Source: a virus (taxonomy: Duplodnaviria > Heunggongvirae > Uroviricota > Caudoviricetes). From it: a stretch of 50,364 nucleotides of DNA. Positions within the stretch are counted from its first letter, which is position 1. Each line of letters opens with the position of its first letter. The DNA lies in the IMG/VR virus record IMGVR_UViG_2563366831_000011, positions 1 through 50,364 of that record. One strand, written 5' to 3'. The notes under the pieces are model-generated. The model did no database searches. It was not told where the DNA came from and saw only the letters and a program-made list of their open reading frames with translations. Both the position numbers and the translations under genes were made by a program. Shown here piece by piece: positions 37,378 through 43,270 of the stretch.

Positions 37378-38829
37378 TCAGAATCCTCCTTTCTTCTTGG
37401 ACTGCGGTTCCTCGCGTTCACGGCGGCGCATTTCAGCAGACTGTTGGTCTGTGTCATAAATAGCGCCATTTGCCTGAATGCAATACACCGTGCCGGTATT
37501 GCCATGACGATTGAGACGAAGGATTAGTTCGGTTTCACCAGGTGGAACACTGTCATCAAAAGCACCTTCACGATGGATCCCCACCCAATAATCGCAATCC
37601 TGTTCAATCTGCCCTGTATCTCGTGAGTCACTTGGTAGTGGGCGTTTATTGGTTCGGCTTTCCAGTGCGCGGTTAAGCTGCGTCAGAAGCACAACAACGC
37701 AATCAAGCTCTTTGGCAAGGTTCTTCAGTCCTTTGGTGATCATGCCGTAAGCAAGGTCGTTGCGATCGGCCTTCTCAGCGGTCATTAGTGTCAGGTAATC
37801 GACCAGAATCATGCCAACACATCCTTTTTCTCGCTTGATTCGACGGCTTTCGCTGACGATTTGAGCCAGAGATAATCCCGGCGTGTCGTCGATGTAAAGC
37901 ATGTCGATTTCACTCAAGCGATTGGCTGTTTCGATCGCCCTGTTGAAGTCACCATCGTAATCACCCTGATAGCCGTCATCAGCGTCATTTGTCGCCGGAA
38001 GGTAAAAAATATTCGGGTTAACACCTGACTTCTGTCCTACCAGTTTTTCCAGTATCTGATCACCTGGCATTTCAAGGCTGAACATCAAAGCGGGCTTTTT
38101 CTCATGCACTGCGCAATTGATTGCCATCTGGCTGTATAGCGTCGTTTTCCCCATCTTAGGGCGAGCGCCAATGACAAACAGAGAGCCTTTCACCAGACCT
38201 TTCGGTGACAGCATCCTGTCCAGCGATGGGATCCCTGTGCTCATTCCCCGTTGTTCGCCTGATGGGTCAAATCGCTTCTCAAGGTCGCTAACCCAGTCTT
38301 CCATGACCTCACCAAATGAGCGAAGGCCGCGACGCGATCCGGTTTTTGCATGGTCTGTCAGTTGCGTGAAAATCGCCTGAATAGCTTCGTACTTCTGCAT
38401 TGCAGTCATTCCGTTGCGGGAATAGAGCAATTCCGTCGCTTCAGTCATGCGGTTGATGGCGTAGCGTTCCATTGCGGTTTCACGAACCTGCATTGCATAG
38501 GCAACGATGTTTGCTGCGCTTGGCGTGTTCTTTGCGATCTCAGCGATATAAGCAAAACCGCCAACAGACGCCGTTAACGATTTACGCTCCAGTTCATCGA
38601 AAAGCGTCAGGCCATCTACTGGCTTTTGCTCACGGTGCATTCTGGTTATTTCTTCGAAAAGGATTTTGTGTGGTCGGCTGTAAAATGAATCAGGCTTCAG
38701 CATCGCCAGAACTTTCTGGACGCGCTCACTGCTGTCATCATCCAGAAGCAATCCACCAATCACCGCCTGCTCTGCCTCGATGCTATGGGGCGGCGCATAA
38801 AAATTATCGGTCATCGTGTTCACCCTCAC
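37378..38829 (-). CDS. Replicative DNA helicase (DnaB-like)
   Basis: 483 aa; N-terminal PHSIEAEQAVIGGLLLD DnaB signature; Walker A GARPKMGKT; directly downstream of the initiator. Confidence 0.85.
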   Translation of the reverse strand: MRVNTMTDNFYAPPHSIEAEQAVIGGLLLDDDSSERVQKVLAMLKPDSFYSRPHKILFEEITRMHREQKPVDGLTLFDELERKSLTASVGGFAYIAEIAKNTPSAANIVAYAMQVRETAMERYAINRMTEATELLYSRNGMTAMQKYEAIQAIFTQLTDHAKTGSRRGLRSFGEVMEDWVSDLEKRFDPSGEQRGMSTGIPSLDRMLSPKGLVKGSLFVIGARPKMGKTTLYSQMAINCAVHEKKPALMFSLEMPGDQILEKLVGQKSGVNPNIFYLPATNDADDGYQGDYDGDFNRAIETANRLSEIDMLYIDDTPGLSLAQIVSESRRIKREKGCVGMILVDYLTLMTAEKADRNDLAYGMITKGLKNLAKELDCVVVLLTQLNRALESRTNKRPLPSDSRDTGQIEQDCDYWVGIHREGAFDDSVPPGETELILRLNRHGNTGTVYCIQANGAIYDTDQQSAEMRRREREEPQSKKKGGF

Positions 38830-39694
38830 GAACTTTCAGGTAGGTATTATCGTTAAGCAGGAAATCAAATCCCTTTTTGTGCCAGACGGTTCCGCGCTGA
38901 TGGTTTGGGCGCTCTTCGAACATCCATCGGCAATTTTCGCCTACGTAGCTCAAATAATTTCTCCAGTCCTGCATCGTGAAACCATGCCCGTCAAGCTGTC
39001 GGGTTATCACTCCGGCTTTGCGCCAGAACGTTCGGATCTGGTTTTTACGCTTGTCATTCAGTGCGCGGATTCTTGGCGCTTCAGGAAGGATTTCGTGGTA
39101 AGCATCGACAACATCCTGACAGCTGACGGAAGGTTTTTTCTTGTCAGACTTTTTGTCTGCTGTGGCACTCTCTAATACGTCAGTATTAGAGATATTATTT
39201 ATATTATTGTTTATGGACAACCGTTGGACAACCGTTGGACAATCTCCGCTGAGAGGCGCGCCATTACTGGTGTTTGCGTTGGACAACCGTTGGACAACCG
39301 TTGGACAATTTTTTGCCTGAAAATCGTCATATTTAACGATTGTAAACAGGCTAAATTTCTTCCCCATCGAGCAAATATTAAGCATCCCTTTCGACTCAAA
39401 AGTCCGTAATAAGCTCCGAACTTTGTTGTCGGGGATGAATGTTTCTCTGACCAGCGACGGGCGTCCAGTTATCATCTGACCGCGATCAACAGTTATCGGC
39501 CCGATATCCGTATTGACGACAGTAGATTCGTGATTAGCCTTGAGGATTAAGTGAAGCCAAAGATGTACTGCCTGAGAGTCCTTATAGAGCCTGCTGTCCA
39601 TAAACTGGCGGTGTATAGAGACATACCCCATACTGGATGCCTCCTGATGTTGTACAGGGTTATGCCTGTAATCAGCTAACTTAACGACGCCCAT
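38804..39694 (-). CDS. Replication initiator (lambda O-like organiser) with internal origin
   Basis: 296 aa; AGGAG SD; iteron arrays lie inside the coding sequence and encode repeated CPTVVQRLS peptides. Confidence 0.7.
   Translation of the reverse strand: MGVVKLADYRHNPVQHQEASSMGYVSIHRQFMDSRLYKDSQAVHLWLHLILKANHESTVVNTDIGPITVDRGQMITGRPSLVRETFIPDNKVRSLLRTFESKGMLNICSMGKKFSLFTIVKYDDFQAKNCPTVVQRLSNANTSNGAPLSGDCPTVVQRLSINNNINNISNTDVLESATADKKSDKKKPSVSCQDVVDAYHEILPEAPRIRALNDKRKNQIRTFWRKAGVITRQLDGHGFTMQDWRNYLSYVGENCRWMFEERPNHQRGTVWHKKGFDFLLNDNTYLKVREGEHDDR
39214..39308. repeat. Origin iterons: two clusters of three TGGACAACCGT repeats, followed by an AT-rich tract
   Basis: Repeats at 39214..39242 and 39280..39308; AT-rich sequence immediately after; inside the initiator gene as for lambda ori. 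Confidence 0.7.
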
Positions 39695-40155: not shown

Positions 40156-40234
40156 ATGTAAGTATTTCCTTAGATAACAATTGATTGAATGTATGCAAAT
40201 AAATGCATACACCATAGGTGTGGTTTAATTTGAT

Positions 40235-40266
40235 GCCCTTTTTCAGGGCGGGGATGGGTAAGAGCG
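40235..40266 (-). promoter_or_regulatory. nutR (boxA CGCTCTTA, boxB GCCCTGAAAAAGGGC)
   Basis: Both boxes read directly on the minus strand between cro and cII. Confidence 0.7.
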
Positions 40267-40273
40267 GGGTTAT

Positions 40274-40483
<210 letters not shown>

Positions 40484-40500
40484 TTAGTACATGCAACTAT

Positions 40501-40564
40501 TATCACCGCCAGAGGTAAAATAGTCAACACGCACGGTGTTAGATATTTATCCCTTGCGGTGATA
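40501..40564. promoter_or_regulatory. Right operator oR1-oR2-oR3 with pR/pRM
   Basis: TATCACCGCCAGAGGTA (40501..40517), CAACACGCACGGTGTTA (40525..40541), TATCCCTTGCGGTGATA (40548..40564) match lambda oR. Confidence 0.85.
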
Positions 40565-40571
40565 GATTTAA

Positions 40572-41288
<717 letters not shown>

Positions 41289-41345
41289 TAGGAAGTAAGT
41301 TTTATGTTGACGGCACAGTCAACTTGGCATAGATTAATTAAACCA

Positions 41346-41406
41346 AGCCCAGCCCCGTTCGCAGACAATTGTTAATATCTGCATAACGGCTCTGGGCTAT
41401 TTTTTT
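41346..41406 (+). other. Compound stem-loop with U-tract between cI and the NYN-like gene
   Basis: AGCCCAGCC...GGCTCTGGGCT enclosing inner hairpin GCAGA..TCTGC, followed by ATTTTTTT. Confidence 0.35.
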
Positions 41407-41415
41407 GGGACTCTT

Positions 41416-42273
41416 ATGAAGAAAGCAGCAATTTTAATTGATGCGGGTTTTTTCATGCAGCGTGTTCATGCTACGCATCGTAAACACTTCGCCGAGCATG
41501 AACTGACTGCGCAATGCATAATGAAAGTAATATGGTCAATGGTTCTTTCCCATCTTAATGGAAAACGTCAATCACAAGAACGTAGGGAACCGCTTGAGCT
41601 TTATAGAATTTACTTCTATGACTGTCCACCACTCGACATTCAAACACGCCTTCCACTTCCTGAGCATGGCAATAAGACGCCTGGTCGCAAGAATTTCAAA
41701 CTCGAAAAATCATATATTCTGAGAACGGAGCTGCATGAAGAGTTAAGAAAAACTCGAAAAACAGCCTTAAGATTAGGGAATCTTGTTGATAATAAGCGAT
41801 GGCAACTAACTACATTCTCCCTTGATGCTCTGATGAAAGGAACGAAAAAATGGGATGAACTGACAAATGATGATTTTTACTATGACATCAAACAAAAACA
41901 AGTTGATATCAAGCTAGGGATGGATATCACGACTTTAGCTTATGAAAAACTTGTTGATGTAATTGTCCTTGTTGCTGGGGACTCAGACTTTGTGCCTGCC
42001 GCCAAACACGCCAGAATTAAAGGTATTGATTTTATTCTTGATCCACTAAGACAGAATGTTACCCCATCACTGTCAGAGCACATTGATGGAGTTCAGTCAT
42101 ACAGCTTGATATCAGGACTTGCCGATGCTTTACATGTTGAGCCAGACCCGGCACCTGACTGGTGGGAAGATCGAAAAAAAGGCAAGCCTAGAGGAAAAAA
42201 CAATAGCGGTAAACGCAGGTATGGAAACACTCAAGCTGAGTCTGCAAAGAAACATCAAAGAAATAAACGATAA
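41416..42273 (+). CDS. NYN/PIN-like putative ribonuclease in the rex slot
   Basis: 285 aa; N-terminal AAILIDAGFF and VIVLVAGDSDFVPAAKHARIKGIDF match NYN-domain acidic motifs; basic Lys/Arg-rich C-terminal tail; same strand as cI, upstream of oL/pL. Confidence 0.55.
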   Translation: MKKAAILIDAGFFMQRVHATHRKHFAEHELTAQCIMKVIWSMVLSHLNGKRQSQERREPLELYRIYFYDCPPLDIQTRLPLPEHGNKTPGRKNFKLEKSYILRTELHEELRKTRKTALRLGNLVDNKRWQLTTFSLDALMKGTKKWDELTNDDFYYDIKQKQVDIKLGMDITTLAYEKLVDVIVLVAGDSDFVPAAKHARIKGIDFILDPLRQNVTPSLSEHIDGVQSYSLISGLADALHVEPDPAPDWWEDRKKGKPRGKNNSGKRRYGNTQAESAKKHQRNKR

Positions 42274-42282
42274 TCCCATCAA

Positions 42283-42308
42283 CCCGGCCACCGAGCCGGG
42301 TTTTCTTT
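42283..42308 (+). terminator. Intrinsic terminator (t-imm-like) after the NYN-like gene
   Basis: CCCGGC-CACCGA-GCCGGG followed by TTTTCTTT. Confidence 0.6.
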
Positions 42309-42463
42309 GCCTCACGATCGCCCCACCTAAAAACACATAACCAATTGTATTTATTTTAAAATTAATAGGTGCAACTCACTAAACAACGCAATTCTGATCT
42401 CTCGATCACCTCCCAAGCCACACAACCCTGCAAAAAATAAATCTATATAAAAAACATACAGAT

Positions 42464-42526
42464 AACCATCTGCGGTGATAAATTATCTCTGGCGGTGTTG
42501 ACACAAATACCACTAGCGGTGATACT
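42464..42526 (+). promoter_or_regulatory. Left operator oL1-3 and promoter pL
   Basis: Three TATCACCGC-type operator sites; -35 TTGACA at 42498..42503 and -10 GATACT at 42521..42526, as in lambda pL. Confidence 0.8.
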
Positions 42527-42596: not shown

Positions 42597-42767
42597 AGCA
42601 TTCAAAGCAGAAGGCTTTGGGGTGTGGTGAAGGGTTCATGGATGGGAATATGTCGCACGTAAAGCGGCGAGGCCTGCGGAACTATTGCCGAATTGAAGTC
42701 GGCCGAAGCAGGTCGAAATGGGTCTCCCACCTACCACACCACCAAAGCTAACTGACAGGAGATGAAC

Positions 42768-42896
42768 ATGAAACATAACGAACACTTTATGGCTTGGTTG
42801 AAGTCAATGCGTGATGAAGCAAAGCGTCCTGAAACAACAATGACGCGAATCGTGGAAATCTTCTCCTGCATCAGCAAGTACGCAACCTGCCAATAA
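42768..42896 (+). CDS. Small hypothetical protein (42 aa) inserted between nutL and N
   Basis: Uses the GGAG SD that serves N in lambda; product MKHNEHFMAWLKSMRDEAKRPETTMTRIVEIFSCISKYATCQ; followed by hairpin GGCCCC-GCTGA-GGGGCC. Confidence 0.4.
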   Translation: MKHNEHFMAWLKSMRDEAKRPETTMTRIVEIFSCISKYATCQ

Positions 42897-42937
42897 CTGT
42901 CGGCCCCGCTGAGGGGCCATTTATCTAAGGATGATAT

Positions 42938-43270
42938 ATGGACTCTCAAACACGCCGCCGCGAACGTCGCGCAGAGAAACAGGCTCAATGGAAAGCAGCA
43001 AATCCCCTGTTGGTTGGGGTAAGCGCAAAACCAGTTAACCGCCCTATTCTCTCGCTGAATCGCAAACCGAAATCACGAGTAGAAAGCGCACTGAATCCGA
43101 TAGACCTTACGGTGCTGGCTGAATACCACGAACAGATTGAAAGCAACCTGCAGCGTATTGAGCGCAAGAATCAGCGCACATGGTACAGCAAGCCACGCAG
43201 TGAAATGGGGGTGACTTGCTCAGGCCGCCAGAAGCAACGCGGAAAATCAATTCCAGCTTATTACGATTGA
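42938..43270 (+). CDS. N: Antitermination protein N
   Basis: 110 aa; MD.QTRRRERRAEKQAQWKAANPLLVGVSAKPVNRPILSLNRKPKSRVESALNPIDLTVLAEYH matches lambda N as recalled; AAGGA SD. Confidence 0.9.
   Translation: MDSQTRRRERRAEKQAQWKAANPLLVGVSAKPVNRPILSLNRKPKSRVESALNPIDLTVLAEYHEQIESNLQRIERKNQRTWYSKPRSEMGVTCSGRQKQRGKSIPAYYD

Follow-up and report, generated by a model that had tools for sequence, protein, structure and literature searches.

What occupies the place of the rexA-rexB exclusion genes in a lambdoid phage whose immunity region is otherwise close to that of lambda, and what might the replacing gene do in a lysogen? The question is raised by IMG/VR virus record IMGVR_UViG_2563366831_000011 (Caudoviricetes), which was analysed as a single stretch of 50,364 nucleotides (nt), referred to below as the window; its list of open reading frames (ORFs) is that of a lambdoid genome in the leftward reading direction. 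A sequence-only reading of this DNA had proposed that one ORF of 285 amino acids (aa), encoding an NYN-type nuclease, has replaced rexA and rexB between nearly lambda-identical cI, oL/pL, nutL and N, and that it represents a swap at this position rather than a core gene of related phages. Each of these proposals agreed with our results. Judging from the sequence comparisons described below, the ORF is part of a self-contained, horizontally mobile accessory cassette, swapped in for rexAB by recombination at the end of cI and at t_imm, and is not a core gene.

An NYN nuclease gene in the place of rexA-rexB

BLAST comparison with phage lambda revealed 97.7% identity over window positions 40200-41292 (cro through cI), ending 4 bases past the cI stop codon. 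Identity returned at 42281, with 89.9% across t_imm, oL, pL and nutL. Between these points the window carries 988 bp, where lambda has 1396 bp with rexA and rexB. The cassette thus lies between cI and t_imm on the cI strand, i.e. in the RexAB position. Its G+C content (37-43%) differs from that of the flanks (45-53%), lambda rexA-rexB DNA is absent from the window, and the encoded protein shows no similarity to RexA (BLASTP E 9.9). The sequence-only reading had described the ORF as bounded by a structured leader and an intrinsic terminator, and the two boundaries turned out to be of different origin. The leader belongs to the cassette, as a conserved, terminator-like RNA behind its own promoter. 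The terminator (42281-42302) starts exactly where lambda homology resumes, and the feature of phage CL707 aligned at 42281 is annotated as Timm; it is therefore part of the phage backbone (lambda t_imm), and not of the inserted gene.

The product of the ORF matched the Pfam NYN family PF01936 over residues 158-205, with a score of 36.8 bits (curated cut-off 24.2; E 6.8e-9), and the same domain was carried by all of the 120 homologues listed, bar two truncated ones. The NYN match in NCBIfam was below threshold, while the search of PHROGs assigned the protein to family 5783, of unknown function (E 1.5e-119). An AlphaFold2 model built from 36 homologues (pLDDT 86.7, pTM 0.79) has, by fold comparison, the three-layer alpha/beta/alpha PIN-like architecture of the NYN family. 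About 150 of the 285 residues align with NYN structures; the remaining family-specific parts are about 100 residues between the core strands and a basic tail. Searches of solved structures by sequence, with either the single sequence or the 36-sequence profile, gave no usable match, and the NYN relatives were recognised only through fold comparison; a viral structure library returned only distant NYN/LabA proteins of giant viruses. Residues D9, D69, D164, D170, D189, D191 and D224, which cover the AAILIDAGFF and GDSDF motifs, are invariant in the 36 sequences, down to 44% identity. The predicted Lys/Arg-rich C-terminal tail was also recognised: it comprises the last ~30 residues, is disordered in the model, varies in length and charge among homologues, and is missing from some of them. 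Since the family model, the predicted fold and the acidic residues (in this family, those that bind the catalytic metal) all fit, the protein is placed in the NYN superfamily, and its sequence, with the acidic residues intact, is that of a metal-dependent nuclease of the NYN family.

The copy in the window differs from the other copies compared only at codon 84 (window 41666), which encodes His in the window and Pro in phages ev099 and 2B8 and in two Escherichia coli chromosomes. Position 84 is variable in the family alignment.

The cassette promoter and its leader RNA

The upstream part of the cassette consists of a near-consensus promoter, a hairpin and a U-run (Table 1). The hairpin (53 nt, three segments, -25 kcal/mol, z = -5.7) begins 10-11 nt past the -10 element, and the U7 tract ends 9 nt before the ATG of the NYN ORF. 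A stable G+C-rich hairpin followed directly by a U-run is predicted from the sequence to be an intrinsic terminator. In 28 of the 46 loci that carry the leader, a sigma-70-type promoter was positioned at a constant distance from the hairpin, compared with 1.7% of random positions. From this spacing the RNA probably starts ~3-4 nt ahead of the hairpin, too close for an alternative antiterminator structure to form. Since the hairpin and U7 stand between cI and the ORF, and since the cassette has a promoter of its own, the NYN gene is probably gated by its leader terminator; the simple co-expression with cI that had been assumed for the rexAB slot is thus not upheld.

The -35 element of the promoter lies within a perfect inverted repeat, GTTGAC-N6-GTCAAC (41306-41323), which may be an operator. 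As an operator common to the whole family this repeat was rejected: it was found in the window and, in similar form, in only ~8 other loci (Escherichia albertii, Pseudomonas syringae, Tatumella, Edwardsiella and some Pseudomonas).

The arrangement of promoter, hairpin and U-run is common to the contexts examined, apart from the U-run in Rhodanobacter and Dyella. In an alignment of 14 distinct sequences of the form found in the window (window type), from Enterobacterales and Pseudomonas, 99% of pair cells were paired, compared with 26-45% when the 3' partners were slid, and compensatory changes occurred at 8 of the 15 pairs. Loop nucleotides were kept beyond the needs of the stem. The corresponding covariance model (R1) picked out a single strong match in each locus, on the plus strand and immediately 5' of the ORF (70-90 bits; 76.9 bits at 41343-41407 in the window). 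No Rfam 15 family matched the window region at E <= 1, and in 10 diverse loci the position of the leader likewise had no match.

A second variant of the hairpin, of the form GCCCYUGG-CAGUAMGCC ... GCCGAMCC-CYRGGGC followed by U's, occurs in other Proteobacteria, Acidobacteria, Rhodothermales, Elusimicrobia and Thermaceae (broad-taxon type), and its model also reaches Proteus/Marinomonas and Bacteroidales forms outside the training set. The model-fitted alignment had 78.7% of cells paired, versus 66.7% in shuffles, with compensatory changes at 14 of 16 pairs, these counts being biased towards the fitted structure by the use of a hand-given structure and realignment with the covariance model; RNAalifold on a plain MAFFT alignment was unusable because of register shifts. 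The internal loop of this variant (alignment A5, loci L040-L101) has, without exception, GUA on its 5' strand and GA on its 3' strand. This pattern may correspond to the sarcin-ricin or loop-E (bulged-G) motif, to which proteins commonly bind in RNAs.

A different arrangement was observed in Rhodanobacter and Dyella (L042-L063 and neighbouring loci). About 100 nt upstream of the NYN start, a -10-like element precedes a short 5' hairpin rich in G+C, whose loop is often CCCAUCCU-like. This hairpin has no U-run, and the spacer between it and the start codon is longer. From its sequence, this looks like a reduced leader without terminator function.

The association between hairpin and nuclease was also analysed from the RNA side, by searching viral contigs with a DNA pattern for the hairpin alone. 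The window-type pattern was found in 52 contigs, and in 51 of these an NYN ORF started 16-31 nt downstream on the same strand (one of these ORFs is internally deleted, and contig ends truncate several). The sole window-type leader without NYN (L138, 3565-3699) is followed, within 8 nt of the hairpin and U-run, by a tRNA-Arg(UCU) gene. The broad-taxon pattern gave 14 matches, comprising one chance match in coding DNA, nine with NYN downstream and four genuine hairpins (27-55 bits) without NYN. The window-type hairpin is thus tied very closely to NYN, and the broad type less so. Two of the four NYN-less hairpins precede integrase modules, one at the truncation point of a ToxN gene and the other directly before a helix-turn-helix (HTH) gene and an integrase. 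The third is flanked by a PaaA2-ParE pair and a Panacea-domain gene, and the fourth comes after a NusG-like gene, upstream of a terminase. The broad-taxon hairpin may be an integration target or a module boundary.

Table 1. Positions of the cassette, of the surrounding immunity-region features in the window, and of broad-taxon hairpins without an NYN gene in other loci
Feature	Positions	Strand	Basis or remark
cro	40274-40474	minus	ORF list
cI, lambda-type repressor gene, 237 aa	40575-41288	plus	ORF; its 3' end forms the left flank for recombination at the slot
Non-lambda cassette in place of rexA-rexB, 988 bp	41293-42280	plus	Gap in homology to lambda and CL707
Cassette promoter, TTGACG-17 nt-TAGATT	41307-41335	plus	Consensus scan, 9/12 matches
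Conserved leader RNA (hairpin 41346-41398, then A + U7, 41399-41406)	41346-41406	plus	Fold, covariance model
NYN-family nuclease gene, 285 aa, stop codon counted in	41416-42273	plus	ORF, Pfam, AlphaFold2 model
Lambda t_imm intrinsic terminator	42281-42312	plus	Terminator scan and fold; right flank of the slot
pL promoter within oL, TTGACA-17 nt-GATACT	42498-42526	plus	Scan; aligns with lambda and CL707 oL/pL annotation
N antiterminator gene	42938-43270	plus	ORF; 97.3% identical to lambda N
NYN-less hairpin, L161	9252-9569 and 9254-9314
NYN-less hairpin, L163	4232-4293
NYN-less hairpin, L164	12717-12781
NYN-less hairpin, L168	7785-7843

Swapping and distribution of the cassette

Comparison with other phages revealed that the same slot is filled in different ways. 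Phage ev099 carries a 99.6% identical protein in the same lambda-type immunity region. In 2B8, a cassette with the same 99.6% protein identity is combined with a different cro and a different N-terminal part of the repressor, the homology starting inside the C-terminal domain of cI. Further copies are present in E212, EC.P3 and 48 Stx2a-converting phages, and unrelated genes occupy this position in HK244, HK542, HK544, mEp332 and CL707 (wild, lambda immunity). In an O121:H19 prophage, whose cassette is also that of the Stx2a-converting phages, a cI-like gene is followed by a DUF3024 gene and then by the cassette, and the last ~19 nt of cI are duplicated before the cassette, which points to recombination at the conserved flanks. 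At a Pantoea locus the homology to the window begins at 41306.

Among 66 non-redundant neighbour proteins from viral contigs with the window-type hairpin there were 20 distinct Peptidase_S24/HTH repressors, four Q antiterminators and 4-5 N proteins, the remainder including DUF3024, integrase and lysis proteins; judged by gene size and orientation, ~22 upstream neighbours are on the cassette strand. More distant relatives (45-86% identity) were found in varied settings. In E. albertii the gene separates Q from the lysis genes of a prophage, in P. syringae it stands at one end of a prophage, and on a Pseudomonas aeruginosa plasmid it adjoins HigBA; in Pantoea other toxin-antitoxin genes (YhaV/PrlF) are close by, and further relatives are chromosomal singletons. 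The occurrence of the gene behind ~20 repressors, at other accessory positions, on plasmids and in chromosomes is what would be expected of a swapped unit.

The cassette was detected in 275 of 5426 complete E. coli genomes, at full length and with at least 99% identity in 74 of them. In ~200 genomes, mostly in the O157:H7 prophage Sp1/CP-933H, a 576-bp deletion removes the C-terminal half of the gene. This deletion corresponds to window 41764-42339 and includes t_imm; the promoter, leader hairpin and first ~117 codons are kept, as exemplified by prophage Sp1 of E. coli O157:H7 Sakai (L104, 3001-3471). In such strains the leader RNA may be made as an orphan small RNA. The possibility that the gene is a pseudogene in E. 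coli chromosomes was considered and rejected, as translation of two chromosomal copies (L102 and L103, 4124-4981 in each) gave one uninterrupted 285-aa ORF. As an artefact of annotation, RefSeq (PGAP) often splits the intact ORF into a 'pseudo' N-terminal fragment and a 146-aa 'NYN domain-containing protein' (WP_224471529.1).

The whole family comprises 7034 clusters at E <= 1e-3, and at least 591 relatives were confirmed in species-representative genomes of many phyla, with a wide occurrence in Rhodanobacter and Dyella species. No recurrent protein partner was found: the 147 nearest neighbours in 80 genome loci belonged to 113 Pfam families, none of which appeared more than three times.

Two further departures from lambda were noted outside the cassette. 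A 175-bp insertion between nutL and the N start codon (42763-42937) encodes a 42-aa ORF (42769-42896, MKHNEHFMAWLKSMRDEAKRPETTMTRIVEIFSCISKYATCQ) and contains a terminator-like hairpin (42902-42918) just upstream of N; such a terminator before N would be unusual. The insertion is absent from lambda, ev099 and CL707, had no match in the phage collection, and was present in only 8 of the 5426 E. coli genomes. The replication module (37378-39694) does not correspond to lambda O/P: a 483-aa DnaB-like helicase is encoded on the minus strand, and a further ORF encodes a replication protein of 296 aa. Only the immunity region of this phage is thus lambda-type, and the genome is a mosaic.

Possible roles of the cassette and its relation to known systems

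The explanation that we favour, and to which we give about an even chance, is that a mobile cassette composed of promoter, conserved leader hairpin and NYN nuclease gene replaced rexAB, that its expression is limited by the leader, and that it has an exclusion or abortive-infection role in the lysogen. In this scheme most transcripts from the cassette promoter would stop at the leader, as would most read-through from pRM or pRE past cI, and the outcome would be an abundant ~60-nt RNA but very little mRNA for the nuclease. That nucleotides of the loop and the internal loop are conserved suggests that some protein recognises the hairpin specifically. The NYN nuclease itself would be the simplest candidate; by binding or cleaving its own leader it would hold down the level of an RNase that may be toxic. 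Autoregulation via their own leaders is seen in RNase E and RNase III, and self-regulation by 5' hairpins is well established (rne, rnc, pnp). In the most speculative step of the scheme, the RNase would protect the lysogen from superinfecting phages, by exclusion or by abortive infection, in the way that RexAB and BstA do from the same slot. From position and enzyme class alone such an anti-phage role is plausible by analogy: RNases of the NYN and PIN kinds often serve as toxins or immune effectors, and KHNYN and N4BP1, two antiviral factors of eukaryotes, likewise use the NYN fold.

Several observations weigh against this explanation. The Rhodanobacter/Dyella hairpin is without a U-run, so termination is not universal, and the broad-taxon hairpin stands without NYN in 4 of the 13 genuine viral matches. 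The comparison with defence catalogues, suggested in the sequence-only reading, gave weak partial matches only in PADLOC (E 2e-4 and 1.4e-3), where the family is not listed, and the closest catalogued candidate, the distant NYN protein HEC-09 of PADLOC, gave no protection against any phage tested (Payne et al. 2024 preprint). In Proteus the relative is a fixed chromosomal gene next to glmS, and most species-level homologues lie among housekeeping genes, not in defence islands or mobile elements; both findings fit a role in host RNA metabolism.

Two other explanations account for part of the data, and we regard each as possible, though unlikely. According to the first, the cassette is an RNA-antitoxin module resembling type III toxin-antitoxin systems, in which an excess of the ~60-nt hairpin RNA inhibits the NYN RNase in trans. 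The terminator would then set the ratio of RNA to toxin, and shut-off of transcription by an infecting phage, or decay of the RNA, would free the toxin and abort the infection. The order promoter, structured RNA, terminator, nuclease is reportedly the layout of ToxIN. Also consistent with this view are the lack of a protein partner among the neighbours, the sporadic distribution amid unrelated genes, including positions next to HigBA and YhaV/PrlF, the retention of loop nucleotides beyond those needed by the stem, and the ability of the hairpin unit to stand without NYN, as an autonomous RNA gene would. However, there are no tandem repeats, the single hairpin per locus gives no sign of processing, the toxin has the NYN fold and not that of ToxN/AbiQ, and the Rhodanobacter/Dyella clade is without the U-run. 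A broader version, which we advance only tentatively, is that the NYN nuclease and its promoter-proximal hairpin RNA constitute an unrecognised, very widespread RNA-controlled toxin or abortive-infection module spanning Proteobacteria, Acidobacteria, Bacteroidales and their phages; the hairpin would act as antitoxin or sensor, and phages would use the module in the rexAB slot against competitors.

According to the second, the protein is a non-defence nuclease of RNA processing or turnover with an autoregulatory 5' leader, like those of rne, rnc and pnp, and its carriers would benefit from the modulation of host or phage transcripts or from stabilisation of the 3' end of cI mRNA. The presence of relatives in so many species and phyla, mostly amid housekeeping genes, the conserved Proteus site and the wide occurrence in Rhodanobacter and Dyella argue for such a function, as do the known self-regulation of RNases via 5' hairpins and the fact that in this phage the leader supplies a terminator directly after cI. 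It is more difficult to reconcile with the phage copies, which occupy slots of lysogenic-conversion or exclusion genes, with the patchy distribution in E. coli (74 intact copies in 5426 genomes), or with the proximity to toxin-antitoxin genes on mobile elements.

The account nearest to the sequence-only reading seems very unlikely; it would make the gene a mere passenger in the pRM operon, transcribed together with cI and, as with rexAB, constitutively expressed by the lysogen. The strand and position are those of rexAB, lambda t_imm lies 3' of the ORF, and partial read-through of intrinsic terminators is common; nevertheless, a -25 kcal/mol hairpin with U7 separates cI from the ORF, the cassette brings its own promoter, in non-phage contexts too, and promoter, leader and ORF travel as one unit. 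Least probable of all is a hairpin that acts as a ligand-sensing riboswitch, or as the target of an antiterminator (NusG-like, or phage N/Q), and switches the nuclease on by a signal: the conserved internal-loop nucleotides (with GUA and GA invariant in the broad-taxon variant) and the one NYN-less copy directly after a NusG-like gene would agree with it, but the ~3-4 nt from RNA start to hairpin offer no space for an alternative fold, no Rfam family matched, and no regulator gene recurs among the neighbours.

The cI-N interval is the textbook home of prophage-encoded exclusion, and a single-gene nuclease was found there behind ~20 repressors. Such a gene is a concrete and easily cloned candidate for a new exclusion determinant, also in Shiga-toxin phages. 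What makes the find noteworthy is the RNA-nuclease module more than the replacement in the slot. A covarying RNA element that is not in Rfam is tightly tied to one nuclease family across many bacterial phyla, and the leader, whether autoregulatory or an RNA antitoxin, provides a direct handle on the control of this uncharacterised NYN family.

Among known systems, the closest in position are the accessory genes of the lambdoid cI-N interval (rexAB of lambda, BstA of Salmonella phage BTP1, and the variable genes carried there by wild phages with lambda immunity, Degnan et al. 2007), which share with the NYN cassette the slot, the strand and the pattern of cassette swapping. The cassette is related to RexA and RexB neither in sequence nor in fold, and contains one gene, not two. 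In contrast to the cI-N accessory genes, it has its own promoter and a leader that resembles a terminator, and is therefore unlikely to depend on pRM; it also occurs outside phages. The view of the slot as an exclusion locus, taken in the sequence-only reading, is not new: the cI-N interval has been described as a hotspot holding exclusion genes, including RexAB and BstA (Degnan 2007, as cited in PMC8585504).

At the level of fold, the relatives are NYN/LabA-like (DUF88) proteins, such as the MARF1 NYN domain (5yaa) and VPA0982 (2qip), with which the ~150 residues mentioned above align. The match to HEC-09 (E 2e-4) relates residues 155-200 to profile positions 98-143 of 203, i.e. 46 positions; the best E-value for this profile among 36 family members was 8.9e-5. 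The HEC-09 model has an N-terminal HTH-like domain (Payne et al. 2024 preprint), and the window protein does not match it over the full length.

Type III systems (ToxIN, CptIN, TenpIN) share with the cassette the predicted order of promoter, structured RNA, intrinsic terminator and endonuclease gene; like it, they have a single protein gene and reside on phages, plasmids and chromosomes. The tandem direct RNA repeats of these systems are lacking, as Tandem Repeats Finder detected none in 41100-42500, where there is a single hairpin only, and the type III toxins have the ToxN/AbiQ/CptN/TenpN fold, whereas the cassette nuclease has the NYN fold. In gene order the cassette thus resembles type III systems, but two of their defining features are missing. 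The rne 5' untranslated region and the rnc leader likewise place a conserved 5' hairpin directly before a ribonuclease gene, but the cassette leader differs from them in its U-run and terminator-like character, and no Rfam family, that of the rne leader included, matches it.

In the literature, for which the coverage of subscription journals was incomplete, so that an earlier description is possible, we found no account of this NYN family, its leader RNA or a role in defence. The claim that the system is undescribed thus holds for its function and for the RNA element, and not for the protein family, which is annotated by its domain ('NYN domain-containing protein' in RefSeq) and as PHROG 5783; the swapping of genes in the slot is also already known. 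What is new is the promoter-hairpin-nuclease unit, its breadth, and the finding that this unit replaced rexAB.

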